Assembly (NCBI GenBank): GCA_965217865.1 | Contig: CBDCJO010000002.1 | Location: forward strand, 2,272,001-2,336,000 | DNA: 64,000 nucleotides | Source: Candidatus Latescibacterota bacterium | GTDB taxonomy: Bacteria; Latescibacterota; UBA2968; SICM01 | Direction of reading: 5' to 3' | Shown here: one piece after another, positions 5,731 to 57,168 of the stretch | How positions within the stretch are numbered: position 1 is the first letter of the stretch | How the letters are laid out: each line of letters starts with the position of its first letter | Position numbers and translations under genes: made by a program | The notes under the pieces: model-generated | Told to the model about the DNA's origin: nothing | Database searches by the model: none | Seen by the model: only the letters and a program-made list of their open reading frames with translations

Positions 5731-6519
5731 ATGGTATCGAGACAATATATAGAAGAGGCCTGGACGCGATTTAGCGTCACGGTGGGTGATGAATCGGTGT
5801 TGTGTAATTTTAACGGCGATCCGGGCAGTGGAGGGGACGCGACGCTGTGCGTCATTCCCACTCAGGCCATGCGGGTGGTCGAGGATCCCGTGAGCATGAA
5901 GGAGAAGCCCAACGTCATGACCCAGTGGCTGGACCGGCTTACCGCAGCCGGGGCCAGCACCCTCCTGGTCCACGGCAAGTGGTTTGACGATCTGTGGAAA
6001 CTTGCGGACCTGGTTCGTGCTGGGCAGGACGCATTTGCCGGAATGGAGAAGCGGATCAGGATCGCAATAAACGAATCGCTTAATCGAGGCTATGTCAAGC
6101 CGGGCAAGATCCTGGTCATGGGCAGTTCTCGCCACGGGTTTGCGATCCTGCACGCCATGGCCAACAACCCCGTCATCAACGGGGCCATCGCACACCAGCC
6201 GATCGTGCACTGGCCGTACATGAAAGAGTTTCACGGGATGGACGACGATCCGATTATCGAGAAGAACAGCCTGTACCAGTGGGCTGAACGGTTCGTTCCC
6301 CGACCTGTCCTTATTCAGACGGGGTACGCAGACGAGCGGGTGGGTTCCAACTGGCTACAAAAACTAATAGACGCCATGGCAGCGGCCTATAGAACTGAAG
6401 GCGCAGAGGCGAGATTCTGCCACGATTTAATGGATCTCCCCGGCCACGACGGCACTCGCATACCGGACTGGGCACTCGACAGTGTGGTTCGATGGCCTGC
6501 TGGGCAGGGGCTGTTGTGA
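5731..6519 (+). CDS. alpha/beta-fold hydrolase
   Basis: Nucleophile-elbow-like MGSSRHG, acid in GYADERV, His in PGHD. Confidence 0.6.
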   Translation: MVSRQYIEEAWTRFSVTVGDESVLCNFNGDPGSGGDATLCVIPTQAMRVVEDPVSMKEKPNVMTQWLDRLTAAGASTLLVHGKWFDDLWKLADLVRAGQDAFAGMEKRIRIAINESLNRGYVKPGKILVMGSSRHGFAILHAMANNPVINGAIAHQPIVHWPYMKEFHGMDDDPIIEKNSLYQWAERFVPRPVLIQTGYADERVGSNWLQKLIDAMAAAYRTEGAEARFCHDLMDLPGHDGTRIPDWALDSVVRWPAGQGLL

Positions 6520-6712
6520 AATGGAAATGAAAAATAAAAAATGTAAATTGCAAAATGCAAAAGTCAGGGGTCAGAAGTCGGAGGCCAGGGAAAGAAAACG
6601 TGAGACGTGAGATGTGAGACGTGAGATGGGAAAGGCAGTAGCAGTTGGCAGTGGCAGGAAAGGCAAAGGCAGGGGTCTGAAGTCGGAGGTCAGGGAAAGA
6701 AAAAGCAAAACC
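6518..6712 (+). repeat. mosaic short-word intergenic repeat tract
   Basis: Runs of AAAATGC/AAATTGC, TCAGGGG/TCGGAGG, TGAGAYG x4 and GCAGTR directly after the stop codon. Confidence 0.85.
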
Positions 6713-6784
6713 GGTAGTGAGGGAGCAAGCCGTGATTCACCTTCCACCTATCGCCGAGCGAAAACGGCGCTAGTTAGGTCAACG

Positions 6785-6960
6785 CCCTCATCCCCTGTAT
6801 CCCCCTTCTCCCGTCCTTCGACGAGCTCAGGACAGGCTCCGCAGGAGAAGGGGACGATGACATTCGTTTTTTATATATTAGAATCACGCCTTTCCCTTCA
6901 TAAAACAATTAGATCATTTCGATCTTCTCCTCCTCCCGCTACCCGGGAGAAAGGTTCCGA
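6785..6960. repeat. REP-like palindromic elements
   Basis: CCCCTTCTCC...GGAGAAGGGG stem enclosing CCTTCGACGAGCTCAGGA (similar CCTTCGACTTCGCTCAGGA near 2353). Second stem CTCCCG-CTACC-CGGGAG. Confidence 0.5.
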
Positions 6961-7010
6961 GCTTGGAAGGCGCTGACAATGTCATCGATTAACCGATTAC
7001 TGCCCACTAG

Positions 7011-8536
7011 CAGCCTGTTGAAAAAGTGCGTTTATGCCAAGATGACTGTTGTCTTTCCTTGTGGTTTGGTCCTATGATATATCAGGTTCAAACTGAGAAG
7101 GGAGGACGAGCAAATGGCAATGGGAAAACGAGGACGACAGAGACAGGAAAACCTGTTCATCGCATCGAACACTTTGGTGAAATCTCCGGGTCATCCGTTC
7201 TACGAGAAGCTGAATCAGGTATTGGGGGCGAACGGCTTCGACGAGTTCGTCGAGGGGCTTTGCCAGCGGTATTACGCTCCTCATATGGGTCGCAAGGGCA
7301 TTCCGCCCGGGGTTTATTTTCGGATGCTTTTGATTGGGTATTTCGAGGGACTTGATTCGGAACGTGGGATCGAATGGCGTGTATCTGACTCGCTGACGTT
7401 GCGCCGGTTTTTGGGGTATGCCCTTGACGAACAGACCCCGGATCATTCCAGCCTGTCTCGCATCCGGCATCGGCTTCCCTTGGAAGTTCACGAAGCGGTT
7501 TTCAAGTGGATCCTGAGGGTCTTGTGCAAAGCGGGTCTGGTGAAGGGGAAGACGTTGGGCGTGGATGCTACGACACTGGAGGCCAACGCCGCGATGCGCA
7601 GCATTGTACGCCGTGACACGGGTGAAGGCTACCAGGCATTCCTTGAGAATCTGGCCAAGGCCTCGGGCATTGAAACGCCTACCCGCGAGGACTTGTCCAA
7701 GATCGATAAGAAGCGACCGAAGAAGGGATCGAACCAGGACTGGGAGCACCCGCACGACCCGGATGCCAAGATCGCTAAGATGAAGGACGGTCGCACGCAC
7801 ATGGCGCACAAGGTGGAGCACGCGGTGGATCTGGACACCAATGCCATTGTGGCAGTGGCGTTGTCGGGAGCAGATGAAGGAGATACCGAGTCGTTGCCCT
7901 GGACGCTGCTCGAGGCGCAGCTCAATCTCAAGCAGGTCGCGAAGGACGAAAAAGCTGCCAAACGTTTGCACAGACAGCGTATACGGGAGGTGGTTGCGGA
8001 CAAAGGATATCATAGCAACGATGTATTGACCAGTCTGAAGCAAGGCGGCATCCGGAGTTACATTTCAGAACCGGATCGGGGACGCCGCAAGTGGAACGGC
8101 CGACGAGATGAGCAGGCCGCGGTATATGCGAATCGACGCCGGATCAAGGGAGATCGCGGCAAGGCCTTGCGCCGAAGTCGTGCAGAACGGGTGGAAAGAA
8201 CCATCGCTCACACATATGATACCGGTGGCATGCGCAGGTTGCACTTGAGAGACCGCGGCAATATCCTCAAGCGTTTGCTGATCCACATCGGGGGCTGCAA
8301 CCTGGCTCTGCTCATGCGCAAAGTGATGGGCGTAGGTACTCCGAAGGCCCTCCAGGACCTGGCCAAGGCCTTGCAGCGTCTACTGCTCGTCCTACAATCA
8401 CGTTTGCTGCCCTCGGTCACCTTTTTAACCTCTTATCAGCGTCTCCTGCTCAATCTCCTTACCTTGATTTATCCGACCCGCACTCCAGGCGTCTTTTCCG
8501 TTTATGTGCGTTGAAAGGTAGTTCTTCAACGGGCTG
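7011..8536 (+). mobile_element. IS1182/IS5-like insertion sequence, copy 1 (1526 bp)
   Basis: Terminal IRs CAGCCTGTTGAAAAA and TTCTTCAACGGGCTG. CTAG duplication at 7007-7010 and 8537-8540. Near-identical copy at 60094. Confidence 0.93.
7114..8514 (+). CDS. DDE transposase (IS1182-like)
   Basis: TPDHSSLSRIR, GVDATTLEANA, HDPDA, VADKGY, VERTIAH. Confidence 0.92.
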   Translation: MAMGKRGRQRQENLFIASNTLVKSPGHPFYEKLNQVLGANGFDEFVEGLCQRYYAPHMGRKGIPPGVYFRMLLIGYFEGLDSERGIEWRVSDSLTLRRFLGYALDEQTPDHSSLSRIRHRLPLEVHEAVFKWILRVLCKAGLVKGKTLGVDATTLEANAAMRSIVRRDTGEGYQAFLENLAKASGIETPTREDLSKIDKKRPKKGSNQDWEHPHDPDAKIAKMKDGRTHMAHKVEHAVDLDTNAIVAVALSGADEGDTESLPWTLLEAQLNLKQVAKDEKAAKRLHRQRIREVVADKGYHSNDVLTSLKQGGIRSYISEPDRGRRKWNGRRDEQAAVYANRRRIKGDRGKALRRSRAERVERTIAHTYDTGGMRRLHLRDRGNILKRLLIHIGGCNLALLMRKVMGVGTPKALQDLAKALQRLLLVLQSRLLPSVTFLTSYQRLLLNLLTLIYPTRTPGVFSVYVR

Positions 8537-8627
8537 CTAGGCTGCTGGCCCTCCCGGAACCAGGTAAAATTGCAAAATGAAACGTCGAATTGGTTCATAG
8601 AAAATCTACAAACGAAAGTCATTGGCA

Positions 8628-10016
8628 ATGGACGATAGATCTCCGGAAGATATTGGTACAGACCGCCAGCTTTTTGTGGATAACTTCTGGATTGCTGAGG
8701 CGAGAGACGTAACGAGAACTCTGCACCATCCTGAACGCAAAGAGGTCGCGATCGCCGGAGAGCATCCCTGGGAACAGAGGGCCATCGGCTGCGCGGGCTT
8801 CATGCACGATGGCGACCGGTTCCGGGCCTGGTACCGCTGCGCGGTGGATGAGGCCAGCACTTACTGTACGGCGTACGCAGAGAGCATTGACGGCATCCAC
8901 TGGGAGAAACCGAAACTGGGTCTCTTCGAATTCGGCGGCTCGAAGGAAAACAACCTCGTGTGGATGGGGCCGGGCACCAATCTCGCGCCATTCCGTGACC
9001 CCAACCCCGATGTTCCCGACGACGAACGCTACAAGGGGGTGGCGCGGACCGAGGGCTCGATGGGGAGCGAAACCCTGCTGGCCCTGGCCTCCCCCGACGG
9101 CATTCGCTGGCGGTTGAATCAGGAAGCCCCGATTCTCACGGAAGGCCCCTACGACTCACCCAACGTCTCCTTCTGGGACGACCGGCGGCGCGAATACGTG
9201 GCCTACGTCCGTGGCATTATTGGCTGTGGAACCCCCGGCAAGCGGAAGAAGGACATTAGTATCTGGAAAGAGGGCGTTCGCTGGATCCGGCGTTCGACTT
9301 CCAGGGATTTCCGTCAATGGACAAAGCCGGAGTTGATCCAGGTGGCAGAGACGTCCACCATAGATCACTATTCTAACGCCTCTATTCTCTACGATCGCGC
9401 ACCCGGCATGTACCTGATTTTTTCATCACGCTTCAACGTTGAACGCCAACCCGATCCGGAACATCCAGACTCCGGGGTCAGCGACATCGTCTTCATGTCC
9501 AGCCGCGACGGGCTGCACTTCGACAGCAGCTTCAGGGAGGCATTCATCCGCCCCGGTCTCGACAAGAACAACTGGCACGACCGCGGTGTCTATATCGAGC
9601 GCGGCATCCTGCACACAACACCAGGCGAGATCTCATTATACGGCATGGAAAACTCTCATTTGGCGACCGTACGCATCCGGCGCTATGCCCTGCGCACCGA
9701 CGGCTTTGTGTCCGTTCGCGCCGGATACGAAGGCGGTGGGTTCATAACCCGGCCGCTCATCTTCTCCGGAAAATCCATGGAACTCAACTACTCCACTTCG
9801 GCGGTTGGCAGTGTGCATGTTGAAATCCAGGACATTAACGGCAATCCGCAAACCGGCTTTACCCTGGACGATTGCCCAGAGATGTTCGCCGACAAAATTG
9901 AAGGCGCGGTTGCCTGGAAAGGAGGAAGCGACGTGAGCGCGCTGGCGGGAAAACCCGTCCGCCTTCATTTCACCCTGAACGACGCGGATATTTACGCCTT
10001 CAAGTTTAACAGTTGA
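8628..10016 (+). CDS. putative beta-propeller glycosidase, paralog 3
   Basis: RQLFVDN, SxDGxxW repeats, LRTDGFVSV, IYAFKF. Confidence 0.7.
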   Translation: MDDRSPEDIGTDRQLFVDNFWIAEARDVTRTLHHPERKEVAIAGEHPWEQRAIGCAGFMHDGDRFRAWYRCAVDEASTYCTAYAESIDGIHWEKPKLGLFEFGGSKENNLVWMGPGTNLAPFRDPNPDVPDDERYKGVARTEGSMGSETLLALASPDGIRWRLNQEAPILTEGPYDSPNVSFWDDRRREYVAYVRGIIGCGTPGKRKKDISIWKEGVRWIRRSTSRDFRQWTKPELIQVAETSTIDHYSNASILYDRAPGMYLIFSSRFNVERQPDPEHPDSGVSDIVFMSSRDGLHFDSSFREAFIRPGLDKNNWHDRGVYIERGILHTTPGEISLYGMENSHLATVRIRRYALRTDGFVSVRAGYEGGGFITRPLIFSGKSMELNYSTSAVGSVHVEIQDINGNPQTGFTLDDCPEMFADKIEGAVAWKGGSDVSALAGKPVRLHFTLNDADIYAFKFNS

Positions 10017-10262
10017 GTCAGGGGTCGGAGGTCAGGGGTCAGGGAAAGCAGGGTAAGAGGTCGGGGGAAAGCAGGATCAGGGGCCAGTGGAATTGAAGAT
10101 TGAAAGCGCAACTGAGCCAGTAGCAGTGGCAGTGGCAGGGAAAGCAAAGGAAGTGAGGGCCAGAAGTCGGGAAAGGCAAGAGAAAAGCATGGTCAGGGGC
10201 TGGAGACCAGAGGTCGGGGGAAGGCAAAAACAGTAGCAGTGGCGAGGTGGCAGGAAAAAGCA
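10017..10262 (+). repeat. mosaic short-word intergenic repeat tract
   Basis: TCAGGGG/TCGGAGG, GATTGAA and GCAGTR words, purine-rich on the sense strand of the upstream gene. Confidence 0.85.
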
Positions 10263-12813: not shown

Positions 12814-12858
12814 GACCCTTCCGCCCATCCCCACCGGAATACAGAATACAGAAGAAGA
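12814..12858 (+). repeat. ~50-bp dispersed repeat, copy 1
   Basis: GACCCTTCCGCCCATCCCCACCGGAATACAGAATACAGAAGAAGA. Related copies at 25886-25938 and 59983-60036 on the minus strand. Confidence 0.75.
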
Positions 12859-12978
12859 AATAAAAACGGAAATCGGGGGCCGGAGGTGGGAAGTCAGGGC
12901 CAGGGAAGTCAAAACCGATAGATAGGGATCAGCTGTGGAGAAGGGACCGTGATTTGAAGTCTTGGTGAGTGAGATATA

Positions 12979-16283: not shown

Positions 16284-16298
16284 GGCAAAAAAGCGGGC

Positions 16299-16340
16299 AA
16301 ACGTCAGACGTCAAACGTGAGACGGCAGACGGCAGACGGA
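16299..16340 (+). repeat. heptamer tract (TCAGACG/TCAAACG/TGAGACG/GCAGACG)
   Basis: Five to six degenerate nnARACG units between cusB and cusA, oriented opposite to the flanking genes. Confidence 0.7.
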
Positions 16341-16419
16341 AGATCTATTTGTCGGTGCGGAGAACCTCTCCTAAAAACACGTGAAGCGTAAAACAGCCCG
16401 GAATGGTCTTGACGGTCCT

Positions 16420-25172: not shown

Positions 25173-25354
25173 CTCCGTTCCTTTCTTTTGCCATCGCTTC
25201 TCCCTTTCCCAAGTGGTTTGGTAAGGAACTCAAACTGTATTCTCAGTTCCTGATCAATTTCTTTTTGCCACATCGTGGTTTCTCTTCGTCTTTGAGACAA
25301 CTCAAAGTCAAAAATGTCTCGCTGATCCCCACGACCTTCGCCATCACCCCCAGC

Positions 25355-25458
25355 TTTTCCCGGCCTCTGACCCCTGTCCTTCGTCTCCGGTCTACCCTTA
25401 ATTTTGCATTTTCCATTTTGCATTTTTCACCTTGCATTTTCCTCCTGACCCCCGACCC
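25355..25458 (-). repeat. mosaic short-word repeat tract
   Basis: TTTTGCA/TTTTCCA runs and CTGACCC/CCGACCC words on the plus strand. Confidence 0.75.
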
Positions 25459-25627
25459 AAGATCTAACCCTGTTTTAGTTGCTTATTGCTCATTGTCGGG
25501 AGAGAACCGGCCCGGATCTGTGCGGCCAGTTCCCGCTGCTCCAACTCTGCCTATCTACTTTCTGTGCAAAGAGTTATCGGTCAGCATCCGGTGGGATTTT
25601 CATCAGCGTACGGTAGTGGTTCCGGGT

Positions 25628-25653: not shown

Positions 25654-25714
25654 GAAAGGTCCGGTGGAATCCAAGAGATTCATACAAAATCCTCTCGCCG
25701 ATTCCTTACTTTTT

Positions 25715-25777
25715 CCGACCTCCGACCTCCGACCTCTGACCTCTGACCTCTGACCTCTGACCTCTGACCTCTGACCC
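25715..25777 (-). repeat. tandem heptamer array (CYGACCT) x9
   Basis: CCGACCT x3, CTGACCT x5, CTGACCC. Confidence 0.95.
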
Positions 25778-25885
25778 CCGTTCCTATACATAACGTCTTA
25801 AATAATTGCGCATATTTTCGGAAAGTTTCGCCTCAACCGTTCAACCTGCCACTTCGGCTAAACCTGAAGACTCAGTTAAATTAGA

Positions 25886-25938
25886 GTCTTCTTCTGACTC
25901 CTGTATTCTGTATTCCAGTGGGGATGGACTGAAGGGTC
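25886..25938 (-). repeat. ~50-bp dispersed repeat, copy 2
   Basis: Reverse complement GACCCTTCAGTCCATCCCCACTGGAATACAGAATACAGGAGTCAGAAGAAGAC. Confidence 0.75.
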
Positions 25939-32053: not shown

Positions 32054-32312
32054 TTTTCAATCTTCAATACTCAATCTTCAATTCCCCGAACCCTTCCACG
32101 GCCTTTGCTTTTCCTGCTACTGCCACCTGCTATTGCTCTTCCCGCTCAGTTTCACGTCTCACGTTTGACGTTTGACGGCCTTTCAATCTTCAATTCCCCG
32201 ACCCCCGCCCCTGCCTTTTCTTTTCCTGCTACCGCCACCTGCCACTGCTACTGCTTTTCTGACCTCTGACCTCTGACCTCTGACCTCCGGCCCCTGCTTT
32301 TTGCATTTCCCC
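32054..32312 (-). repeat. mosaic short-word intergenic repeat tract
   Basis: TCAATCT, CTGCYA, CACGTCT/GACGTTT, CTGACCT and TTTGCAT words fill the spacer. Confidence 0.9.
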
Positions 32313-33191: not shown

Positions 33192-33326
33192 GGCCCTCTT
33201 TCATTCACGCATCGGGTTCGTATAGGACCTTCGCTGAAACCCTACACCCGATCCTGACTATCGGTTTTGACTTCCCTGACCTCTGACCTCCGGCCTCTGC
33301 TTTTTGCATTTCCATTTTGCATTCCC

Positions 33327-35589: not shown

Positions 35590-35700
35590 TTCTCTTCCCC
35601 GACCCCTGATCTCCGACCTCCGACACCTGACTTTGCCTATCCTGTCTCCTGCTACTACTACTGCTACTACCTTTTCCCGTTTCACGTCTGACGTCTCACG
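35590..35700 (-). repeat. mosaic short-word repeat tract
   Basis: CCGACCT, CTGCTA/CTACTA and CACGTCT words. Confidence 0.8.
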
Positions 35701-38700
35701 ATTTCCCTTCCACCTCTCCGACCAACCCTTTATCTCGAACCGCCTTCAGCAAAACCTCATCCTCCATCAGTCTCAGAAACCGCAGCGCTTCAGCCCGGTC
35801 TCCCGGATCAGTGCCCAGAAGTGCCACCCGCGCAAGCAAGTCAGCCGCTTTCTGTTCTCCGCTCCTGGCCAGAGACGCCTGTGCGGTCCGCCGGACGATT
35901 GGATGCGGGTCGTCCAACATAGACTGAATCCTCTCCAGGTCCGGGGACGAGAAAGCGCCTATCCTGCGTAAGGCATCCTGTCGGACCTTCCAGTCCCGGC
36001 TCCCGAGATTTTCCATCAGAGTCTCATAACCAACCGGAAGCTCCGGGTCCACCTCCCACTGCCATCTATTGGCGGACGAATCCAGGGAAGCCATCGGATC
36101 GGTCGGAATGCCCGAAGACGGGTCCGGCATGCCGATGTAAAGATTTCCATCCCGTACGATCTGCCCGGCCCCTCGGAGCCAGGGATAGAAATTTTGATCC
36201 TTGCCGCAGCGCTGAACCTCTGAGGACGTTGCGATGCGCGGTCCGGACATCCGTTCTCCGGACAACTCCTGGTGATCAATGTCATCCCACGCGGTCCCAA
36301 AAGGCGTCACGCCGTAAATTTCCCCCTCTCGGGTCTCGATGGACAGGACCTCCCCGCTGATTTCCGAAACGTCGCCCTGCGTCAACGATTCGACGCGTAC
36401 CCTCTCCCGGCCCCAGGGGTTTGCGACCCGGCAGGTTCCGTCGTGTGTTCCCCGGACCGAAAAGGTGGCCACCTGATCGCCCCTCCGTTCGGAACTGAGC
36501 AGGAACCCCCCCTCGATCCTGAAGTTCGCGAACCGCATCGGTTCCCCCGGCAAGGCCCCCGGGAAAAGATGCACCACCCCGTGCCTAACTTGTAAAAGCC
36601 ACTCGTGGACACACGCGCAGAGGACATTCGTCCCCTCGACGATCGACAGCCGTCCGATCTCCCACTCCCCCTGTCTCAGATCGGCGAGGGCGACCTGTCC
36701 GTTCGGCTTCAGGCAGAACCTCAGAAACGGACTGTAGAACAGATTCCGGGAAAGATCAGGAAGGTCGAGCCGGGAAGCGACGATCGGAAGCCACCCCGAC
36801 GTGAACCCGACCGGTTCAAATCCTCCATCAAATCCCGGAAACGCCTCGTGCCTGGCCACACCCCGGTAAGCGATCAGGTCCGTCGTGATCTCCAGAGTCT
36901 TCAGGAATTTTTCATAAAGGGGATGGTTGGGTGTGACCTCGCAGACGGGATAGACCCCCGCGAACACCGAGGGGTGACAGCGGTACGGATGGGCGACCAT
37001 TTGGGACTCATGAACCGATTGGCCGTCCTGGGGGTAGTCGAATAGACGCTCTCTCATCTCCAGCCATGTCCGGTTCTCATCCTCCTCTCCAAGAACCTCC
37101 CCCGCCTCGATCAGGTGGTCCATGAGCGAACCGAACATCGCCCGGTCGATGGCAGGGTCGAACCCGGACCCGGATTGTTCGGGAGATTGCGATTCGACCA
37201 GGTGGACCCTGCCGTCCTTCCCCTCACTCATCACCGACTCGCCGTACCGGGCGCAAGAGGCCATGAGCGGATAGAGATAGTCTCGAAGAAAGGCCACGTC
37301 CCCGGTCAGCTTGTAGTGCTGCCAGAAATTAAGATGGAACCACGGCGTCGACGATTTGTGAGGGTTCGGATAGACGGTTGCCAGCCAGCGATGCCCCCCT
37401 GCCCATAGCGGGAGCGCCTGGTGCGCGACCTCCATTCCCCCGTGGGGAGAATGCTCGATGAACTCCGGGATCATCTCCAGGAAAGTGCGCACGTAGGGAT
37501 ACCCCAGATCGAGTCTGTTGGAGGGATAGATGGACCACCAGATCACGGGTACCTGTGCGTCCGTGGTGTACCCGTCCATCCAGGGTGGATTATCGCGCAT
37601 GTAGGATAGCCCCATAAAGGAGGTAGCCTGTTCGCTGCGCGACACGCACGCCTGCTGATACATCCCAAAGTAGTACGCGTGCTCGATGAACTTATCCGGC
37701 AAGTCCACGAACGATGCGTTCCAGTATCTGCCCCACCTGTCGCGATGCGTCGACCGGTCCGCTTCGGGATCCACGGATGCGCCTTCCGCTGTCATGTCCC
37801 TTGCTCGGGCAAGAGGCGTCCCGCACTCCCGGTCTGTGACGATCGATACCAGGATTTCAAAGTCGAACGAACGGGAAGACGGAAGTTTCAAGCTTCGTCC
37901 GTTCCTGTCCGCCACGTTCTCGTGGCCGACTTGCGCCTCGGAGCTTTTGACGATTGCCGAGATCGCATACGACATGTTCGGAAGCAAGTGTTCCATCCAG
38001 ATCTCCCGGTCTTTCCCGTCGTAGCCGATTGAGCTCGAAGCCCCTGTAGCAGGGAATTTATGAGCTGGCCGTTCCAGACTGATCCGTGGCGACACCGGCC
38101 CATCCGATCGGACGTGACAACGAATCCTCGCCAGGTTCCGGTCCCCCTGAACGTAAGCGGCCACACGAGCTTCCCACCCATCCCCTGACCAGGTGCGCTC
38201 GACCCTCCCCTCATACAGCGACAGCCGGTCCTCGAATCGGTCGGCTTCGGGATTGAAGGGCCTTCCTATGTCGATGCTTAACAGCCCCCCCCAGCAGCGG
38301 CCCGTCCCCACGCCCCGGTCATCTGTTGCCCAGAGATCCGTCTTCTGCATCCAGAAACAGAATCCTTCCCCTCCAGTAATCATGCCCCCGAAATCCCCAT
38401 TTCCGACCAAGAGCCCGTCCTGCCAGTGATCCACGGGACGTCGATAAACGATATCGTGCTGAGAAAGGTAGGCCTCCACGTCAGGCCGGAATCGAGATCC
38501 CGCAAAACAATCTCCCGCCCAGGCAGATTCCTGGATTCGCTGCCGCAGCGTCTCCCCCATTCGATCGAGGCGCAGGGGAATTCGCACGCGTTTTGGGACC
38601 GTGAAATTTCCCGCGGCCCACTGAACTCCCCGGGTTAATTCTACCTCCACCCCAACTGGAATCTCCTTCCCAACTTCACCCTCATCCACCGGAATCCAGA

Positions 38701-39111: not shown

Positions 39112-39262
39112 GTTTTTTCCGACCTCCGACCCTTGCCTTCGCATTTCCTGCTGCTGCCACCTGCCACTGCTTTTCCCTGCCTCCGCCACTAGTTCAGTTG
39201 AATCTTCAATATTTAATTTCCTTTGTCCCCCGACCTCTGACCCCTGCCTTTCCTGCCACTGG
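39112..39262 (-). repeat. mosaic short-word repeat tract
   Basis: CCGACCT, CTGCCA and TCTTCAA words. Confidence 0.8.
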
Positions 39263-39265
39263 ATT

Positions 39266-41029: not shown

Positions 41030-41064
41030 AAACCAACCCCCCTTGAGAGATACCCTAATTTTCA

Positions 41065-41240
41065 TTTCCCCTGACTTCCGACCCACTGTCTTTGTTCCTG
41101 CCACTGCCCCCTACCACTGCTTCTGCTTTCCCTGACCGTCCTACCTCTGACCTACTGCTCTTCCCGTTTCACGTTTGACGTTTGACAGCTTTTCCGACCT
41201 CCGACCCCTTTTGCATTTTCCAATTTCCATTTTTCATTTC
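41065..41240 (-). repeat. mosaic short-word repeat tract
   Basis: CTGAC/CCGAC, CTGCCA, GACGTTT and TTTGCAT words. Confidence 0.8.
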
Positions 41241-41241
41241 C

Positions 41242-43743
41242 CTACAACTCAATCCCCAGTTCCTCCATCCTCCGATATATCGCTTCCCGTGCCTCTATGA
41301 AGGGCCTCTGCAGGTAGCCAAGATGATCCGCCTCACCGTGATGGTGCGTCACCCCGCCCCTGTGCCGCGCGGCCGTCTCCCGGATATAGATCAGGTCACC
41401 CTCGATCAGCGTGAGCATGTATTGCGCCGCCTCCTTATCGAACAGCCACCACTCTCCCCCGCACGCGACGTAGATCGGTGAGGTGTGCGCAAAGATCCCT
41501 CTCTGCCAACTATCGAGATGTGGAATACTCGTGTAGTTCGGACCCCCGCAGCGAGCGGCCAGCCACGTGTGACCGTCCACTTTGACCTTCGCCGTCAACG
41601 TCAACCGGCGCGTCCCACCATCCTCCTCCGTCGAAGCCACGACCCGCCCCTGCTGAACGACCTGGAGTGTGTGGATCGGGAAGATGCTCTCCGCCCAGGC
41701 CTCCACCTCGACGGTCCCGGGTCCGGACATCTGTAAGGTATCCCCCACGCGTTGTCCATCCACCGTGAACTGAATAATCGGACCCCCGCTGTGAAAAGTC
41801 CTTCCCAGTGTCACGCTCCGGCACCAGTTATCATAGTTGAACTCCTCGTCCTCCGGAACATATGCATAGGTCCGGTAGATCCCCACCGGGACATCGCTGC
41901 TCATCTTGTCCGTTCCGCCGACGAGAGGCAGGCGATAACCGCAGTTCAGATATCGATAGTATTCGATGTGAGGGAACGAATCGTGACGGAGCATCTCGAT
42001 GCCGTCGGCGCGACCTGTGGCGATCAATGCCACGGGTTCTCCGTTCGGGCTGGGCAGGTGGGGGATGATCACCGTCCCCCCCTGCTCGCGGCACTGGTCC
42101 GCCCAGTCGGACATCGTGATCTCCAGTGTGCCCCCCGGTTCCGCCTCTGACGGACCGTCGCTGCACCATGGCATCACCGGCCGCTTCAATCCCCAGAGAA
42201 TCAGGTGTCCCAGGAAATGCTGTCGGTTCTCCTGAGAGATATAGACGATGTTGTTCCCATCCCGCGAAAGGCTCGGCCCGCCGGTGAACTCCTCCGTGTT
42301 GGTGAACAGGCTCCCCCACTGGGACTGAAGCAGGTTGACCACATTCAGATCCTCCCCCTGGGACTCCGTATGGCTACCCTGCGTCGAGAGGAAATGGACG
42401 TGCGAGTCGCCGCTGAACCATCGCTCGGCGTTCATGTTCGTCCAGCGCTTCAGGCGCAGCGTGAGTTCCCGCTGACCCGGTTCGATCTTCACCTGCGTCC
42501 GAAGCGGTTCATACTCGAATCCGCGCGCTACGTCGGCGATCACATCTCCCCTTGGAAGCCATCCCTGGCAGGTGCCGTCGATGTAGGCGTAGGTGATCTG
42601 CCCCAGGCGCATGTCACCTCCCACGTCGATGTGCCAGGTCCCCAGGTTGGAGTTCACCTGATTGTGGTAACCGTGCGGCTGATACGGGATTCCTTCGGGC
42701 GATCGAAAGTGGACGCGGCAGGGAACCGGTTTGTTCGTCTCATCGTCGAGAACCGTCACGTGCACCCAGTTCCTGCCCCGATCCAGCAATTCCACCCGCA
42801 TACGCGGGGTTTCCACTGCACCCTTTTCCGCTACCTCTCCCCAGTTGACCGTCCCGATCTCCTCCCGGCTGTTGCTCACCTTCACCGAGGCCGAAGGGAC
42901 CGCAGCGATCTCCACATAGGCCGGGCTGGACTTGCGATTCTGGGCCTCCCCCCAGCCTTTTCGCGGATCGTCCAGAAACGCCTCCGAAGTTGCCTCCGGT
43001 AGAGGATGGACATAAGTGGCCAGGCCCCGGTCGACCGCCACATCCAGATCGAACGGCGCCTCCGCATCCTCGGGGTTTTTCAGGATAATCCGGGTCTCCT
43101 GCCTGCCGTGTCGGACAAAGGGGTGCTCGTCCACGTGCCCCAGCGTAACCGCAGCGATGATAAACCCGGGCCCTTTCGGAACCACTTCAAACGACTCGAT
43201 CGTCCCGTCAGGCATCGGATTCTCCCATGCCCACAGATAATATCCCTTGGGGGTCGCGCCCGACGCCTCGGTCTGCCGGCGTCCGGTCTGTTCCCAGGGG
43301 CCCTCGTAGCGAGGAATCATGGCCACCTTCTGGTCCGGGACCGCACTGAATGGACCCCCGGCTCGACTCGGTGGGACCACCCCGATCTCGAAACGTTCCC
43401 GGATCGGGACGCTTGCCGGTTTCTCCCCCTGAGCTCCGGTGAGATGAAATATATACTCCGCCACCGGAATCCCGAGTGCCCCGCCCTCCATCAAGGAAGA
43501 CTCCAAAAGCCGGTGCGCGACGATAATCCGGCGGGCGTTTTTTCCGACCGGAATGGTCACCCCGCCGTCTGAGTCTCCGAACGCGATAAAACAATCATCC
43601 TGGCTATCGGTCCCTTCCTCCCCAATCAGGAACGGCAGCCCGTGAAAGGTCTGTTTGCCGACGGGGGCTTGCACACCTTCACCGAGTAGATCCGTCCCTG
43701 CGTTACACTGACCCGACAAATCAATAGGTTCGTAGTCCGCCAT
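41242..43743 (-). CDS. CehA/McbA family metallohydrolase
   Basis: PCRVHFRS, RGFEYEP, SGDSHVH, QENRQH..GH, YYRYLNCG..GGTD, GRTF..GP, AHTSPIYV. Confidence 0.85.
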   Translation of the reverse strand: MADYEPIDLSGQCNAGTDLLGEGVQAPVGKQTFHGLPFLIGEEGTDSQDDCFIAFGDSDGGVTIPVGKNARRIIVAHRLLESSLMEGGALGIPVAEYIFHLTGAQGEKPASVPIRERFEIGVVPPSRAGGPFSAVPDQKVAMIPRYEGPWEQTGRRQTEASGATPKGYYLWAWENPMPDGTIESFEVVPKGPGFIIAAVTLGHVDEHPFVRHGRQETRIILKNPEDAEAPFDLDVAVDRGLATYVHPLPEATSEAFLDDPRKGWGEAQNRKSSPAYVEIAAVPSASVKVSNSREEIGTVNWGEVAEKGAVETPRMRVELLDRGRNWVHVTVLDDETNKPVPCRVHFRSPEGIPYQPHGYHNQVNSNLGTWHIDVGGDMRLGQITYAYIDGTCQGWLPRGDVIADVARGFEYEPLRTQVKIEPGQRELTLRLKRWTNMNAERWFSGDSHVHFLSTQGSHTESQGEDLNVVNLLQSQWGSLFTNTEEFTGGPSLSRDGNNIVYISQENRQHFLGHLILWGLKRPVMPWCSDGPSEAEPGGTLEITMSDWADQCREQGGTVIIPHLPSPNGEPVALIATGRADGIEMLRHDSFPHIEYYRYLNCGYRLPLVGGTDKMSSDVPVGIYRTYAYVPEDEEFNYDNWCRSVTLGRTFHSGGPIIQFTVDGQRVGDTLQMSGPGTVEVEAWAESIFPIHTLQVVQQGRVVASTEEDGGTRRLTLTAKVKVDGHTWLAARCGGPNYTSIPHLDSWQRGIFAHTSPIYVACGGEWWLFDKEAAQYMLTLIEGDLIYIRETAARHRGGVTHHHGEADHLGYLQRPFIEAREAIYRRMEELGIEL

Positions 43744-43842
43744 ATCCAATTCCTCCCAAGACTAGATTGAAGATTGAATATCGGAAATTTGAATGTTTGA
43801 AAAGCCCAGGACTCTCTTATAACTCAATGGATCTCTTTGAGC

Positions 43843-43970
43843 TTCAATCTTCGATCATCCATTTCCCTGGCCCCTGCCTTTGCTCTTCCTGCCACAGCCA
43901 CTGCCACTGCATTTGAACTTCCTCTAACCTCCGACCCCTACTTTTTTCACCTTGCACTTTCCTCCTTGCT
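43843..43970 (-). repeat. mosaic short-word repeat tract
   Basis: TCAATCT/TCGATCA, CTGCCA and CCGACCC words. Confidence 0.75.
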
Positions 43971-46200: not shown

Positions 46201-46221
46201 AGATCAGGTTCTTCTTGTTTC

Positions 46222-46340
46222 ACTCTTCAATCTTCAATTTCCCCCGACCTCTGACTTCTGCCTCTGCCTTTCCTGCAACTGCAACTGCAACTGCTACTGC
46301 TACTGCTTTCCCCCGACCCCCAATCTCAATATTCATTCCT
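46222..46340 (-). repeat. mosaic short-word repeat tract
   Basis: TCTTCAA, CYGACYT, CTGCAA x3, CTGCTA x2. Confidence 0.8.
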
Positions 46341-49010: not shown

Positions 49011-49071
49011 CTTGAACCCTCCTTTTATACTGCTACTGCCGTCTCACGTTTGACGGTTTTTCAATCTTCAT

Positions 49072-49676
49072 GAAAGTATTTGGACTTGGATACCCCTTCC
49101 TTTGGAAGGGGAGGAAAAGTTTAGCTTGCCGAAGGCAAGCTAAAAGGCTGTCTTATCGTGTGCAGACCACTGAGACTCATATCGACTCAGGAGGCATACG
49201 ATGGGACTCCGACGGACCAGTCACGCAGTCTATGATAGCCAGTATCATCTGGTATGGGCACCGAAGTATCGGAAATGGATTTTGCGAGGTGACCTTCGAG
49301 AGTATGTGGGCAAGCTGTTTCATCGGATAGCAGAGGATTTTGGTTTTGACATCCAAGAGATGGAAGTGGCCGAAGATCATGTGCATATTTTCTTGTCGTT
49401 TCCTCCCCAGTATTCGATTTCTAAGGTAGTGGGCATTTTGAAGAGTATTTCGGGCAGCGGGGTCTTCCGAGAACATCCAGAGGTGAAACGGGAGTTATGG
49501 GGTGGAGAATTCTGGGAAGATGGTTATTTTGCCCGCACCGTAGGCGACAAGGTGACTTCTGAAGTGATTGAGCAATATATTCGGTATCATCGTCAAGAGC
49601 AGAAAGGGCCCCTACAGTTGGATCTGTTTGGGGATGGGAGTGGTTAATGCCCCGCCCTTTGGGCGGGGTGGTTTAC
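49072..49676 (+). mobile_element. IS200/IS605 family element (tnpA only)
   Basis: Subterminal hairpins CCCCTTCC-TTT-GGAAGGGG and CCCCGCCC-TTT-GGGCGGGG, right end TTAC. Inserted 3' of TTCAT with no duplication. Confidence 0.85.
49201..49647 (+). CDS. tnpA: IS200/IS605 Y1 HUH transposase
   Basis: YHLVWAPKYR, EDHVH, FWEDGYF, IEQYI. RBS AGGAGG. Confidence 0.95.
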   Translation: MGLRRTSHAVYDSQYHLVWAPKYRKWILRGDLREYVGKLFHRIAEDFGFDIQEMEVAEDHVHIFLSFPPQYSISKVVGILKSISGSGVFREHPEVKRELWGGEFWEDGYFARTVGDKVTSEVIEQYIRYHRQEQKGPLQLDLFGDGSG

Positions 49677-49830
49677 CCTTCGATCTTCGATCTTCAATTT
49701 CTCTGACCCCTGCCTTTGCCTGCTACTTCCTTTGCTTTCCCCTGACCTCTGACCTCCGACCCTTGTCATTGCATTTCCTGCCACTGCTACTGCCTTTCCG
49801 TCTCACGTTTGACGTTTGACGGCTTTTCCG
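49677..49830 (-). repeat. mosaic short-word repeat tract, continuing 49030-49071
   Basis: TCGATCT, CTGACCT, CTGCYA and GACGTTT words. Confidence 0.85.
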
Positions 49831-49832
49831 AC

Positions 49833-51782
49833 TTACGTCTTGCCCGTCAATATTCCGATAATCGATCCCACGACAGTGATCACTGCGTGTCCCATCATCA
49901 AACCCAGAAAGAAGGGTCGGAGCTGGCCGTAAAGAGACGGCCCCCCATACTTCAACACATTCTTCTTGATCAGCCAGGCCAGAAAAACATTGATCAACCA
50001 GGCATGGTAATATATCCCGATCGGAAAGCCGACGGGGTGGACAGGCCACCAGAACAGCCGCTTACGAATCAGGGTCAGTAGCACCATCACGATCCCCCCG
50101 ATACCCAACCACAAGATCCGAATCGGTTGTCCTTCTCCCGTGGGTTCGCTGATGGCGCCCCCGTAGTATGTGAGGTGGTAATTCAGGGCTTTGATCACAT
50201 ACCACGTGTATGAAAACCCATATGTCCCCAGAGTATAAGCATAATGGATCAGCGTCACCGCCGCGGTCCCCCCACCCACCACAAGGGCAAGTACCATCAG
50301 ATAGAAAAGGTTTCGGGATCTGCGTCCCGGTCGGTGTGTCAGTTTTAACGACGTGGATGCACTGGCCATCACGTGCGGACCGCCGGGGAAAGCCCATGGC
50401 TGGGCAAGAAAGAATCCGGACATCGTCGACGCTCCGACGGTTTCAGTTCCCGCTGAATGGAACAGCACCTGCATCGGGCTCAGGGGGGCCTGCAGTACCA
50501 CCCCGGACTCGGCAAGGATACGGGTCACCCCCAGAAAGGTTCCCAGCATCAATACCATAAAAATCGGGACAACCCACACGGATATCCCCGTGACCATCAG
50601 CCACAGGGTGATGAAAGCCGTCCCCCCCAGGGTCCCTACCACGGCCGCACGATAGGAGAGCATCTCATCTCCGTCATCCACCTCCGGAGCCGTCCCAAAC
50701 GCCTTCCGAAAGACATCCCGGAGGTGATGTCTGGCCTCGTAAAGGCCGAATAACACAAACAAGATCAGCGCCCCCAGAGCCTCATGGTGCAGATGGAAAT
50801 TATATGCGGATGGACGGTAGGGAGGGGTGGAAGGAACCGCGGTTCCGGTGAGGTTGACGAAAAATTGCTGAATGTACCCGACTAAATTGAACAGGAGGAT
50901 GCTCCCCAGGACCTCCAACGATACCAGGTAGCTGATCCCCAGAATGAAAAAATGAGTGTAAAAGTATAGTCCTATGGAGTTCCGGAAGATTCGCGTGTAG
51001 AAATTGAGATTCGGCGAGGGGATAAATGAGACGAATCGATGAACGATGGACGATAAACCCAGGAGGGCGGGGATGGAAAACCCGTACCAAAAAATCGAAT
51101 TCCGGGAAAGGGATTTTTCTCCCCCGGTGCCCTCCACCAGCGCCTGGGGAAGCTGCGCCATCGGAAATGGCAGTCGCTCCTCCTCCATCCAGCGTTTTCG
51201 CAGGATCACCACCAGTGAAATCATCGTGACATACAGGCCGCCGAGAAATACACCCCACGCACACAAAGTCCACACCCAGGCACCATAGGGGATCTCTCCT
51301 TCAGGACCGATACCCTCAAAAAAACTTTTTGCTACAACGGGATCTTTGATGGCCAGGCCGTCCGGCAGCTGGGGCAAAACCTTGCTCTCCCATTTGTTTT
51401 CCGGTGTGGCATAATGCGCGAAACCTGCCAGATGGGGGATCAAATAGACGATTCCCCCTCTTGTGGTGACCCCGGAGACAATCAGGAGCATGGAGAAGAT
51501 GACCAACAGTTCCTGTGGCCTGAGTCCCAAACGTACGGAGAAAAACCGTTTTAGAAGAGACAGCAAACCCATAAGGGAAAAAATCAGGAACAGCGCACCC
51601 GTTCCGAATCCGCGTGCCGAAACACCGTCATTTGCTCCCAGGGCTTGCGAGCAGATATCAAAGAAACCCAGAAGGGCACACAGAACCGTCCCGATCAAAG
51701 CCGCCTTCCAGGTCGCCCCCGAAGATGATTGGTCCTCTTCTGCGGACGATTCGATCCTGGGCACCGATTCTGTTTTGATCAT
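49833..51782 (-). CDS. multi-pass membrane protein, DUF6785/DUF6784-like putative transporter
   Basis: ATPENKW, WMEEERLPFP, RILAESG, WWPVHPVGF, KYGG..LY..LRPFFLGLMMG. Many TM segments. Confidence 0.7.
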   Translation of the reverse strand: MIKTESVPRIESSAEEDQSSSGATWKAALIGTVLCALLGFFDICSQALGANDGVSARGFGTGALFLIFSLMGLLSLLKRFFSVRLGLRPQELLVIFSMLLIVSGVTTRGGIVYLIPHLAGFAHYATPENKWESKVLPQLPDGLAIKDPVVAKSFFEGIGPEGEIPYGAWVWTLCAWGVFLGGLYVTMISLVVILRKRWMEEERLPFPMAQLPQALVEGTGGEKSLSRNSIFWYGFSIPALLGLSSIVHRFVSFIPSPNLNFYTRIFRNSIGLYFYTHFFILGISYLVSLEVLGSILLFNLVGYIQQFFVNLTGTAVPSTPPYRPSAYNFHLHHEALGALILFVLFGLYEARHHLRDVFRKAFGTAPEVDDGDEMLSYRAAVVGTLGGTAFITLWLMVTGISVWVVPIFMVLMLGTFLGVTRILAESGVVLQAPLSPMQVLFHSAGTETVGASTMSGFFLAQPWAFPGGPHVMASASTSLKLTHRPGRRSRNLFYLMVLALVVGGGTAAVTLIHYAYTLGTYGFSYTWYVIKALNYHLTYYGGAISEPTGEGQPIRILWLGIGGIVMVLLTLIRKRLFWWPVHPVGFPIGIYYHAWLINVFLAWLIKKNVLKYGGPSLYGQLRPFFLGLMMGHAVITVVGSIIGILTGKT

Positions 51783-51930: not shown

Positions 51931-52104
51931 ATTTTAACCCTGCATAACTGTGTGTATTGTATCTTTTTCCGGGTCGGGAGACAAAGCAACGGCCCCTCAC
52001 CCAAACCACCAGCCCCTTAATGCTCACCACCCGGTCAGATGCAGCCGTCAGATCAGCAAAGGCCACCGGTGTGAAATTATCACTTTGCACTTTCCATTTC
52101 CCTT

Positions 52105-54862: not shown

Positions 54863-54890
54863 AAAAACCGCACCTCTGCGGATGCGGTTT
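54863..54890 (-). terminator. putative intrinsic terminator
   Basis: On the minus strand AAACCGCA..TGCGGTTTTT. Confidence 0.45.
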
Positions 54891-55059: not shown

Positions 55060-55212
55060 ATTTCAAATCTTCAATCTTCGATCTTCAATTTTCCCTGACA
55101 TCCGACCTTTGACCCCTGCCTTTGCCTTTCCTGCCACTGCCATCTGCTACTGCCTTTTCCCGTCTCACATCTCACGTCTCACGGTTTTCTTTTCCCTGAC
55201 CTCCGACCTCTA
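55060..55212 (-). repeat. mosaic short-word repeat tract
   Basis: TCAATCT/TCGATCT x4, CYGACCT, CTGCYA and CACRTCT words. Confidence 0.85.
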
Positions 55213-55223
55213 GCCTCTTTCAC

Positions 55224-56978
55224 CTATCCATCGGTCGGCAGACAATACGGATTCTCGATCATATATCCGTCCAGGGAAATCATTGGAACGACGCGGAAAA
55301 AGCTATCCGCGAACGCCTTCATCTCTGGAAATTCGTCCCTGTGACCCAGCAACCGGTGCATGGCCCATCCGCTCAGGCGATTTGACCTTCCGTGGCTGTC
55401 CCAGAAGCAGAGTCCGTCCACACCCGCCTCGTAGCAGGCCATGGCCCGGACCCGCATCGAATCCGCCGACTGCCTTCTGGGATACAGGTCCGCATGTACC
55501 TGAGTCTGGGTCCCTTTCGCCAGATCTACACAGGTTTTGATGATAGGAACCCTGTCGCTGGCATCCGGTTTCCCCACGCCTTCGATGTGCACCACGAAGT
55601 GGTCCACCAGTCCCTCCTTCACCCACGTCTCCGGATCTATTCCGTGAGAGCGAGCTCCTGTAAACAGACCCAGATCCGGGCAACCCTTCACCCCGTAGCT
55701 ATCTACAGGTACGACATAGCAGGTGCCCAGGCGACGGCCTTGCTTTGCCCCGACCTCATCCAGCATCTCCCGGGTTTCACGCAGAAGTTGGGTGAGAAAT
55801 TCTGCCCGGTGGTTGAGGACCCGCTCGTCGAAGGGATCCATCTCTTTCATATTCTCACCGTACTTCTCGCGGAAAGACCGGGTGACAGGTTCCTCGTAGA
55901 GGGCATAAGGCCAGGAGCGGCAGAAGATGATGCACACACCATCAGCCCCATAATCCTCCACCCACTCCCGGAACAGTTCGACGTACTTGGCCCGGACTTC
56001 CGGGAAGGCCTGGCTCAGATGGTGGGTCCGGTATCCCTCCCGTGTGAGGCACCGCCACTCGGGATGTTGCGTCTGGAAATCACCGGGGCCCACATAGCCC
56101 CGATGGTTTGGTGGGAGTTGCTCGCCGATCATCCGCACCTGCGCATAGATCTCGATCCCGATGTCATGGGCACACTGCACCGCCTCTTTCAGGGGATCAA
56201 ATCCGTGACGGCGATATCGGTCCAGAGTCTGCCAGGCTTTTCGGATTCGACCCGGCAGGCCGAAGGACCACTTCATCTCGGAACCTACATGGGAGGGATA
56301 GAAGGTCGCGAAGGATCCCGCGCATCCCCAGAGCATCATCCTGAAGTCGCTGTTGGCCAGGGCCTGGAACTCGTCCACCATCTCCTGATGCGTGGCATAG
56401 GCCCACATGTTGTGCTGCCCGGAATCGTAGTTGGCGATCAGAAGCCGGGTGTCCGTTCGAGTTAAATCGTGCTCAGCACGCTTCTGTTCCGCACGGGACA
56501 GAGGCACGAGACGGATATAGGAAATATTTGTAGCCCTCTCGGACATTTCGCCCCCTGAAGGCCGATGAAAGATGATCTCCCGTCCTGTAAGGTCCGCCGA
56601 CTTCCAGTAGGCCTCGCAGAGATCCGTTGCTCCGGGAATCATCTCCTCCGCCACCAGATCCTTTCCGACACGAAAGTTCTCGGGCACAGATCTGGTAAAT
56701 CCCGGATCATCACTCAACTTGATCAGGAGACACGTCGACGGATTAAGCGGAGGAAGGAAAGTCCCAACGAAGATGTGGTGCCATCCGGTCACCCCGGGTG
56801 ACAGCCTGATCGGAGGCGCCGCCGTGTCCGGACCGCAGAAAAGCATCTTGCCCTCTCCCTGCTCGATCGCGAAGTCAACGGCCGTCCACTTGCCCTTCTC
56901 AAAGTCCTCGGATACGGCATCCCGGGGTTCACAAGCCGTCATATCCAACAGATAGATCGATTCGTTTTCCCTGTCCAT
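55224..56978 (-). CDS. putative TIM-barrel glycoside hydrolase (GHL10-like), paralog of 39266-41029
   Basis: Colinear shared motifs NYDSGQH, AFPEVR, CRSWP, ADLYPRRQS, GVDGLCFWD. RBS GGAGG. Confidence 0.65.
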   Translation of the reverse strand: MDRENESIYLLDMTACEPRDAVSEDFEKGKWTAVDFAIEQGEGKMLFCGPDTAAPPIRLSPGVTGWHHIFVGTFLPPLNPSTCLLIKLSDDPGFTRSVPENFRVGKDLVAEEMIPGATDLCEAYWKSADLTGREIIFHRPSGGEMSERATNISYIRLVPLSRAEQKRAEHDLTRTDTRLLIANYDSGQHNMWAYATHQEMVDEFQALANSDFRMMLWGCAGSFATFYPSHVGSEMKWSFGLPGRIRKAWQTLDRYRRHGFDPLKEAVQCAHDIGIEIYAQVRMIGEQLPPNHRGYVGPGDFQTQHPEWRCLTREGYRTHHLSQAFPEVRAKYVELFREWVEDYGADGVCIIFCRSWPYALYEEPVTRSFREKYGENMKEMDPFDERVLNHRAEFLTQLLRETREMLDEVGAKQGRRLGTCYVVPVDSYGVKGCPDLGLFTGARSHGIDPETWVKEGLVDHFVVHIEGVGKPDASDRVPIIKTCVDLAKGTQTQVHADLYPRRQSADSMRVRAMACYEAGVDGLCFWDSHGRSNRLSGWAMHRLLGHRDEFPEMKAFADSFFRVVPMISLDGYMIENPYCLPTDG

Positions 56979-57059
56979 GACTCGCCTCCCTTCGTTCCAG
57001 GTTTAATAGTCTTCGGCCAATAATTCTTCACACTCTCCGCCACTTAACGTTCTCTGGGT

Positions 57060-57168
57060 CTTTCCTTTCCCCGACCTCTGACCTCTGACCTCTGGCCTTC
57101 GACATCTGCCCTTGCCATTCCTGCCACTGCTACTGCTTTTCTCTTAGCTCCGACCCCTGGCCTCTGAC
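57060..57168 (-). repeat. mosaic short-word repeat tract
   Basis: CYGACCT x3 and CTGCYA words. Confidence 0.8.

Follow-up and report, generated by a model that had tools for sequence, protein, structure and literature searches.

Ordered heptamer-word tracts at gene boundaries of a Candidatus Latescibacterota genome and their probable relation to four-helix-bundle gene cassettes

What places runs of the same few six- and seven-nucleotide words in spacer after spacer of a bacterial genome? The question is raised by a 64,000-nt stretch of a Candidatus Latescibacterota assembly (hereinafter the window; G000:C2:2272001-2336000, C2 being one of two contigs, C1 and C2, of genome G000), in which an initial annotation had described intergenic tracts composed of five words: A (TCRGAGG/TCAGGGG), B (TGAGACG/TCAAACG), C (GATTGAA/GATCGAA), D (AAAATGC/AAATTGC) and the hexamer E (GCAGTR). 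The genome measures 6.43 Mb in two contigs at 55% G+C and is 96% complete and 9.3% contaminated. A genome-wide period survey adds the heptamers F (arrayed at 12837-12853), G and H, and at least eight word families are stacked in the genome. We find the tracts at every place named in that annotation and confirm that they often start right at a stop codon. They are ordered stacks anchored at gene boundaries, and our reading is that they probably represent solo arms or gene-less derivatives of cassettes that carry a four-helix-bundle protein gene (PF05635), likely copied from spacer to spacer, and that the replication fork likely gives them their polarity. On this view they would be selfish DNA that is tolerated rather than a code for regulation.

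Anchoring and strand polarity of the tracts

To call tracts, a Markov model was trained on those of the genome itself, with the reversed genome as control. The model yields 786 matches (704 intergenic) against 30 in the reversed genome, and one word pattern matches 103 times and never when read backwards. Merging leaves 565 tracts genome-wide, and 445 of 3870 spacers longer than 30 nt bear tracts. Period-7 segments number 753, compared with 49 of period 5 and 72 of period 8; 654 of the 753 are intergenic, intergenic DNA making up 22.7% of the genome by our own gene-calling script, which misses some short or atypical genes and so makes intergenic counts approximate. Tract density is patchy (variance/mean 8.9 per 64 kb) and unrelated to G+C; the window belongs to the dense parts, and the ribosomal cluster at C1:228-266 kb has no tract inside. 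The statement that the words spare insertion sequences (IS) agrees with the absence of any model match within the window's four transposase open reading frames (ORFs). The tracts also carry no CRISPR spacers, as had been said: their periods are 6-8 nt, with neither 24-47-nt repeats nor unique spacers, and an Rfam search of the window gave no match.

The orientation of the tracts follows gene boundaries. With 'forward' denoting the purine-rich orientation (except for word G, where it denotes the orientation that follows stops), 217 of the 226 tracts within 15 nt of a stop run forward and 9 backward, and within 30 nt of a start 74 run backward and 18 forward. Tracts thus start where a gene ends or begins and run outward from it, on either strand. 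Among the 339 co-directional spacers with tracts, 203 hold forward tracts only, 102 backward tracts only and 34 both. The earlier claim that the purine strand follows the sense of the adjacent genes fails for the 102 backward cases among 305 single-orientation spacers, and in the window for 16298-16344 and 43759-43789. When both orientations share a spacer, the forward arm comes first in 39 cases and the backward arm in 1 (of the 445 tract-bearing spacers). The description of the tracts as not palindromic is contradicted by these 39 spacers and by the two-armed element at 43759-43964.

A second rule of orientation concerns the G-rich, probably leading, strand. We read strand skew from the silent sites of genes 6-20 kb away, and call the strand that is G-rich by G/C skew the leading strand, as GC skew is generally understood. 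The forward strand lies on the G-rich strand in 421 of the 565 merged tracts; where the skew is clear, the agreement is 124/132 for D, 102/119 for E, 136/162 for A, 91/108 for B, 41/49 for F and 10/13 for H. For C, which is found in both arms, it is 82/127, and for G it is 0/23, the purine-rich G strand thus lying on the G-rich strand in all 23 cases. Of the 2086 genes that the G-rich strand encodes, 158 have a stop-anchored tract behind them and 19 a start-anchored tract ahead; for the 1806 genes of the other strand the numbers are 41 and 49. Where the local skew flips, the tract strand changes along with it. Replichore alone, against which the initial annotation had wanted the coding strand weighed, is insufficient to explain orientation, since stop-anchored tracts run forward in both gene classes (163 vs 2 and 54 vs 7), and yet the tract strand still follows the G-rich strand. 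For the strand that the mRNA shows, transcription matters about as much as which strand is locally G-rich. Purine strands also lie on the G-rich strand in 9 of 10 cases in genome G074, in regions chosen around C-word matches, and in 6 of 7 in G057, in three C-word regions and one cassette region; rplB and rpoB agree with the equation of G-rich and leading strand. A replication-strand bias of tract copying is likely.

Genes with a tract anchored at their stop show an excess of G at the silent sites of their last 12 codons (+0.114 vs -0.013, n=61), which may reflect tract sequence absorbed into C-termini. Pooled counts had suggested a long mutational halo in the flanking genes, but in per-gene tests with tracts masked only these last 12 codons show a clear effect; the gene-wide G or C richness of tract-flanking genes is due to their strand class. 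Raised ribosomal-like codon scores beside tracts were set aside as confounded by the strand effect. The silent-site skew itself flips locally at C2 0.8-1.04 Mb and 1.36-1.8 Mb, through inversions or mis-assembly, and dnaA (C2 2.24 Mb) is 0.7 Mb away from the main skew switch near 2.92 Mb.

Block order, gene-less elements and armed cassettes

The order of blocks within tracts, described as shuffled, proves to be polar. Its asymmetry scores 148 compared with at most 92 in 2000 random reversals, and the entropy of the next block is 1.72 bits compared with at least 1.95 bits in 500 within-tract shuffles. Transitions and their reverses are unequal (B-to-E 41/5, A-to-C 37/3, C-to-B 12/1, D-to-A 27/13), six of the 56 possible types account for 216 of 354, and every type has recurrent linkers of its own. 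Window tracts read DABEA, ABEAC, BEAC or EAC. Stretches are also shared between loci: 140 of 198 multi-block tracts align with another locus over at least 60 nt across blocks, at a median best identity of 85% in a comparison made without a low-complexity null, and the tracts at 6518-6710 and 55066-55216 have 128 aligned columns in common at 87.5%. The proposal that the tracts are the footprint of templated repeat writing is supported in its copying part by multi-block stretches common to distant loci; no enzyme is tied to the tracts.

Some tracts form complete elements without a gene. Their layout comprises a forward composite, a conserved core of ~50 nt and a fixed backward C arm; the exact fixed right end recurs in 41 copies, most of them behind the common core, and 34 of the 41 point along the G-rich strand. 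The window element at 43759-43964 is a variant of this C type. Like MITEs (miniature transposable elements with inverted repeats), the C-type element is short, multi-copy and non-coding with inverted ends, and it represents a minority of tracts. Further non-repeat modules recur behind tracts genome-wide in smaller clusters (clusters 3-5 and 8-13). In five cases forward and backward arms stand 200-1300 nt apart, and no long ORF is recognised between them. A long stem is predicted for the two-armed element of the window, but shuffled sequences fold as well (z -0.81), and five tracts that were tested form little structure by themselves (z -0.3 to -2.4). A B-E junction was not found in viral contigs, nor were relatives of window ORF 43974-45404 found in metagenome contigs. 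G-word arrays are near-perfect and reach 276 nt at 24 loci (e.g. C1:31014-31290 and C2:4645410-4645674); all 23 scorable arrays hold one orientation to the skew and are usually followed by a common core and a short return arm. Orientation-dependent expansion of these arrays is possible.

The link to a protein family comes from four PF05635/TIGR02436 loci in the genome (C2:852894, 1734300, 3991568 and 5354459), all carrying repeat arms, each in one word family; the four words, without regard to the order of the loci just given, are B, D, E and H, three of which are window words. The B-armed locus has no downstream arm and the H-armed locus has hairpins on both sides; the D-armed gene carries an in-frame stop and the E-armed gene lies in two frames, leaving two of the four genes broken, while the proteins at C2:852894 and C2:3991568 are intact. 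From other genomes we collected 109 four-helix-bundle loci, 29 in the phylum and the best 80 from 2 of 64 collection parts, 97 of them with full flanks. Tandem repeats of 6-8 nt stand upstream of 62 of the 97 (2 being runs of N), downstream of 64 and on both sides of 45. Arms complementary within one mismatch occur at 29 of 97 loci; control windows further out score 3 and 8. In 42 of 60 cases no more than 20 nt separate the start of the arm from the upstream stop. An A-run resembling the linkers between blocks stands behind 29 of 67 arms and ahead of 9. In intact cassettes the forward arm extends from the upstream stop codon and the complementary arm stops short of the start that follows. The tract model of this genome scores seven of the 109 loci, by words A, B or G, which serve as cassette arms in unrelated phyla; these loci come from Balneolaceae, Burkholderiales, Luteimonas, Mariprofundus, Syntrophaceae and two genomes of the same phylum. 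The suspicion, voiced in the initial annotation, that four-helix-bundle genes accompany the repeats is thus borne out, with every locus of the genome armed and the layout recurring across phyla. Separately, in five genomes an armed cassette splits a coding frame at the same site (L018, L019, L021, L036 and L040 in G001, G012, G008, G067 and G114); the split gene is presumably a DNA methyltransferase, judging by its motifs.

Reverse transcriptase (RT) matches number three in the genome (C2:451254, 487638 and 814892), none near a PF05635 locus. One region, L030:5150-7073 (G000:C2:487149-489072), encodes a reverse transcriptase of 371 aa whose gene overlaps an ORF of 286 aa behind it, and the two may be a split RT of the defence type; the gene ahead of it we take to be Fic-like. 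A candidate 'writer', a compact RNA polymerase-like gene, was rejected, as it is present in all 13 genomes of genus g4, 12 of which have no A-pattern match. Its product at G000:C2:2645329-2649023 (L032:5330-9024) is a compact protein of 1031 aa with RNA polymerase beta and beta-prime domains, encoded directly behind a gene for an extracytoplasmic function (ECF) sigma factor; full-length relatives occur in 15 of 30 related genomes, among them all 13 of genus g4, and a second partial copy lies at C2:2438878-2439585.

Comparison of strains and relatives shows fast change. Contigs of runs X3 and X5, from two studies, cross the tracts at 33266, 35595, 43759-43964 and 46224 without a difference, so that four tracts are supported by contigs, not raw reads, one study being possibly the assembly's source. 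By comparison, an X7 contig over 35560-39033 (3.5 kb) carries 69 substitutions and 39 gap letters, 38 of which lie inside the 35595-35704 tract as a 22-nt insertion and 14-nt and 2-nt deletions; elsewhere in X7, 58 letters stand in place of 49013-49831. Tracts are rewritten in blocks between strains with a gene divergence of ~2%. Read by eye, the window tracts are absent from all 12 orthologous gene ends compared, which come from seven relatives; one of these ends, in G001, has a hairpin that is built of a different heptamer and matches a G001 cassette arm. The same words stand at stops in other genomes. The comparison of orthologous spacers and strains suggested at the outset reveals change by whole blocks.

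Tracts of the window and their neighbours

Genes for acetate-CoA ligase and citrate synthase, an efflux operon of the Cus type and four transposase ORFs lie in the window, together with a long run of hydrolase-like and unknown genes on the minus strand, most of which are trailed by tracts (Table 1). Inside this tract-rich run lie an HU-family DNA-binding gene (31711-32016) and an adenine methyltransferase-like gene (34609-35553). IS1182-like transposases at 7114-8514 and 60112-61593 both score below cut-off; an IS110-like fragment occupies 23337-24119, and strain X7 lacks the IS200/IS605 transposase at 49201-49647, which two tracts flank. Palindromes rich in G+C, which form a different family of elements, adjoin tracts near 6790-6860, 39030-39070 and 49095-49125. 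A holin-like ORF at 10300-10575 (NCBIfam holin_4, 60.5 bits, cut-off 70) stands alone, no other phage gene being recognised nearby.

Table 1 Heptamer-word tracts of the window (window coordinates)
Tract	Position	Strand	Context
Composite D-A-B-E-A	6518..6710	+	Begins in stop codon of ORF 5731-6519
Short D block	8562..8585	+	Just past IS1182-like transposase ORF
Composite, A/C/E units	10014..10243	+	From stop of ORF 8628-10016
F-A tract	12836..12913	+	29 nt past citrate synthase stop; convergent spacer
B tract	16298..16344	+	14 nt ahead of minus-strand CusA-family gene start; purine strand antisense
A-D-A tract	25353..25464	-	No called gene end anchors it; model match 25401-25464, A units ~25353-25379 by eye
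A array, near-perfect	25714..25784	-	8.6 copies, 98% match
F block	25890..25916	-	–
Longest composite of the window, A/E/C/B units	32054..32312	-	From PhyH-family gene stop; internal 112-nt duplication (1.9 copies)
D-A tract	33266..33323	-	3 nt past a stop
B-E-A tract	35595..35704	-	Overlaps stop of ORF 35696-38923
Composite, A/C/E units	39112..39265	-	From stop of ORF 39266-41086; then non-repeat module and G+C-rich palindrome
Composite, D/A/B/E units	41065..41243	-	From stop of ORF 41242-43743
Complete gene-less C-type mini-element	43759..43964	-	Forward D-A-E then A/C units; ~50-nt core; backward C arm ends 15 nt before next start
E-A-C tract	46219..46323	-	17 nt past a stop
Short C-B-E tract	49028..49074	-	Far side of IS200/IS605 transposase 49201-49647
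B-E-A-C tract	49678..49833	-	From stop of ORF 49833-51782
Short D block	52080..52103	-	1 nt past a stop
A-B-E-A-C tract	55066..55216	-	7 nt past a stop
A-E-A tract	57061..57174	-	Overlaps a stop
F block	59987..60011	-	–

Origin of the tracts and comparison with known systems

Boundary anchoring, strand polarity, block order, shared stretches, armed cassettes, gene-less elements and fast change are the observations that an account of the tracts has to join. A derivation from PF05635 cassettes could do so as follows. Every word would derive from one cassette lineage, and arms would be added at, or converted into, spacers already holding an arm through recombination. A few founding junctions would be inherited, giving D-A-B-E-A-C and its short cuts, and slippage would let unit numbers drift. 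A step involving single-stranded DNA at the fork might deposit or keep one arm, favouring the arm that has its purine strand on the leading strand. A possible precedent, whose direction need not fit, is the asymmetric lagging-strand deletion of palindromes reportedly described by Pinder and colleagues in 1998.

Several observations weigh against such a descent. The window contains no four-helix-bundle gene, only 4 PF05635 loci face 565 merged tracts in the genome, and none of the 109 cassette loci is armed with the C word. Among cassette arms, the purine/pyrimidine rule is kept by just 42 of the 62 that lie upstream and 43 of the 64 downstream ones. Tracts occur without any PF05635 match in G002 (36 A-pattern matches, 91% complete) and G074 (C tracts, 97% complete). 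The end of the C element was not found in public genome contigs nor its core in metagenome contigs, collections from which near genomes may be left out, and no transposase, recombinase or RT is tied to the elements. Low-complexity sequence inflates the inter-locus alignments, to which no null was applied. As to polarity, G056, sampled at two-armed cassettes, is evenly split (14 vs 13, i.e. 14/27), the 16S gene lies on a weakly C-rich strand, the skew flips several times in an assembly with 9.3% contamination, and Xanthomonas heptamers have no leading/lagging (replichore) preference (PMC4692102).

One of the two inferences of the initial annotation was a combinatorial single-stranded RNA code, in which the words would be protein landing pads that tune processing, stability or termination in long operons; the proteins could be those of the host or four-helix-bundle ones. 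The forward run of nearly all stop-proximal tracts on the mRNA, the little structure of the five tested tracts, the pentameric state of PF05635 proteins (2GSC) and their likeness to Avd (PMC10053308) and the regulator-binding role proposed for Beggiatoaceae repeats (PMC4679880) would all suit such a code. We find it quite improbable and not supported, because the mRNA carries the complement in about a third of single-orientation co-directional spacers, the choice of strand tracks the G-rich strand, and the tracts are rewritten between close strains and absent at orthologous gene ends; the tract-free ribosomal cluster likewise speaks against it. Plain microsatellites, arising in each spacer by polymerase slippage with strand-dependent mutation or expansion, among which four-helix-bundle genes merely happen to sit, would fit the unit-sized indels between strains, the perfect G arrays with their single orientation to skew and the tract-bearing genomes that have no PF05635 match. 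They leave unexplained the non-repeat cores shared together with a fixed end in 41 copies, the type-specific linkers and polar order, and the complementary arm pairs of the cassettes, and we regard them as unlikely.

Retro-writing would invoke an Avd-like pentamer acting with a host or borrowed RT: arm RNA would be turned into DNA at gene ends, the fork would provide the priming, and stacks would grow by template jumps. It draws on the resemblance of PF05635 to Avd (PMC10053308), the three RT-family matches, the G-enriched last codons and window tracts that look like nested entries to one order with a fixed far end (ABEAC, BEAC, EAC); it is opposed by the lack of an RT match near a PF05635 locus, by 79 start-anchored tracts on the antisense strand and by a silent-site shift that fades past 12 codons and may be absorbed tract sequence. 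Like the RNA code, it seems to us quite improbable. That tracts are recombination hubs, kept as boundary homology for inserting or shuffling accessory genes in the manner of cassette sites, is very unlikely: their clustering and their trailing of most genes in the minus-strand run agree with the idea, but strain contigs keep neighbouring genes while the tracts differ, and joints between tracts in these contigs have short sides that are uninformative on gene exchange. The chance of an assembly artefact, conceivable in a repeat-rich and contaminated assembly, is negligible given the four tracts crossed unchanged by X3 and X5 contigs and the same words at stops in other genomes.

Descent from PF05635 cassettes therefore remains our preferred reading. 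A bolder extension, which we offer as a speculation of low probability, is that Avd-like four-helix-bundle pentamers drive transposase-free mobile DNA, each lineage recognising its own 6-8-base word and writing arms at gene boundaries with an RT or host repair enzymes at the fork; repeated events and template jumps would leave a stack that is ordered and strand-polarised, and the stack would record successive invasions. If this were true, bacterial heptamer repeats would gain a testable origin. The genome holds likely intermediates together, from cassettes both intact and broken, through two-armed elements that lack a gene, to solo arms and stacks of several words in order, and offers two measurable handles, directional block order and strand polarity. 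Should the elements prove inert, they would still be an extreme instance of a repeat class already known and would warn against taking such tracts for regulatory codes.

In cyanobacteria, heptamer repeats bear the name STRR, and the analogy drawn to them in the initial annotation holds for the period of 7, the intergenic location and the stop/start rule. An excess of intergenic heptamers in bacteria has been noted for years without a mechanism; in Xanthomonas and Nostoc, Rehm et al. 2015 describe 7-nt units, about 90% intergenic, with convergent inverted pairs and a G/purine strand that is the coding strand just past stops and the non-coding strand just before starts (PMC4692102). G-quadruplex formation is a property of a subset of the Xanthomonas and Nostoc repeats. 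The present tracts share the unit length, the mainly intergenic location and the stop-forward, start-backward rule; those repeats differ in having one word per genome studied and, in Xanthomonas, no strand preference, whereas here at least eight families are stacked in polar order, mostly one-armed, with a bias to the G-rich strand. MacGregor 2015 reports heptamer direct repeats of Beggiatoaceae, cyanobacteria and Bacteroidetes that are common to distant lineages and show 7-nt indels between strains (PMC4679880). Like ours, they form dispersed short arrays, split or mixed with related heptamers; they differ in lying mostly forward right before starts in the Beggiatoaceae genome, and a term search of the paper gives no link to four-helix-bundle genes.

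Among mobile sequences, MITEs and the small dispersed repeats of cyanobacteria, the latter reportedly described by Elhai and colleagues in 2008, resemble our elements as short, multi-copy, non-coding DNA with complementary ends, nested in heptamer arrays. The ends here differ in being tandem words arranged asymmetrically, a variable composite facing a fixed end. The ORF-bearing intervening sequence of Coxiella 23S rRNA (S23p/PF05635/TIGR02436), described as a selfish element under reductive evolution (PMC4990558), encodes a protein of the same family as the four cassettes found elsewhere in this genome and shares their complementary arms; the cassettes, by contrast, sit between protein genes rather than in rRNA, and the window tracts have no ORF and mostly no partner arm. 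Intervening sequences of the 23S rRNA kind are removed from the RNA by RNase III. The structure 2GSC shows a PF05635 protein as a pentamer, and the family is also recorded in cas loci (PMC3936711) and related structurally to Avd, a protein of diversity-generating retroelements (DGRs; PMC10053308). DGRs are alike in this relation and in changes concentrated at gene 3' ends, and unlike in that no RT stands beside the PF05635 loci here, no pair of template and variable repeats is seen and no adenine-specific change is apparent. A search of open-access main texts retrieved no paper that connects PF05635 with arms of heptamers, or the leading strand with heptamer tracts. Both the repeat class and the rule for stops and starts have been published; this locus adds the ordered multi-word stacks and their strand polarity.

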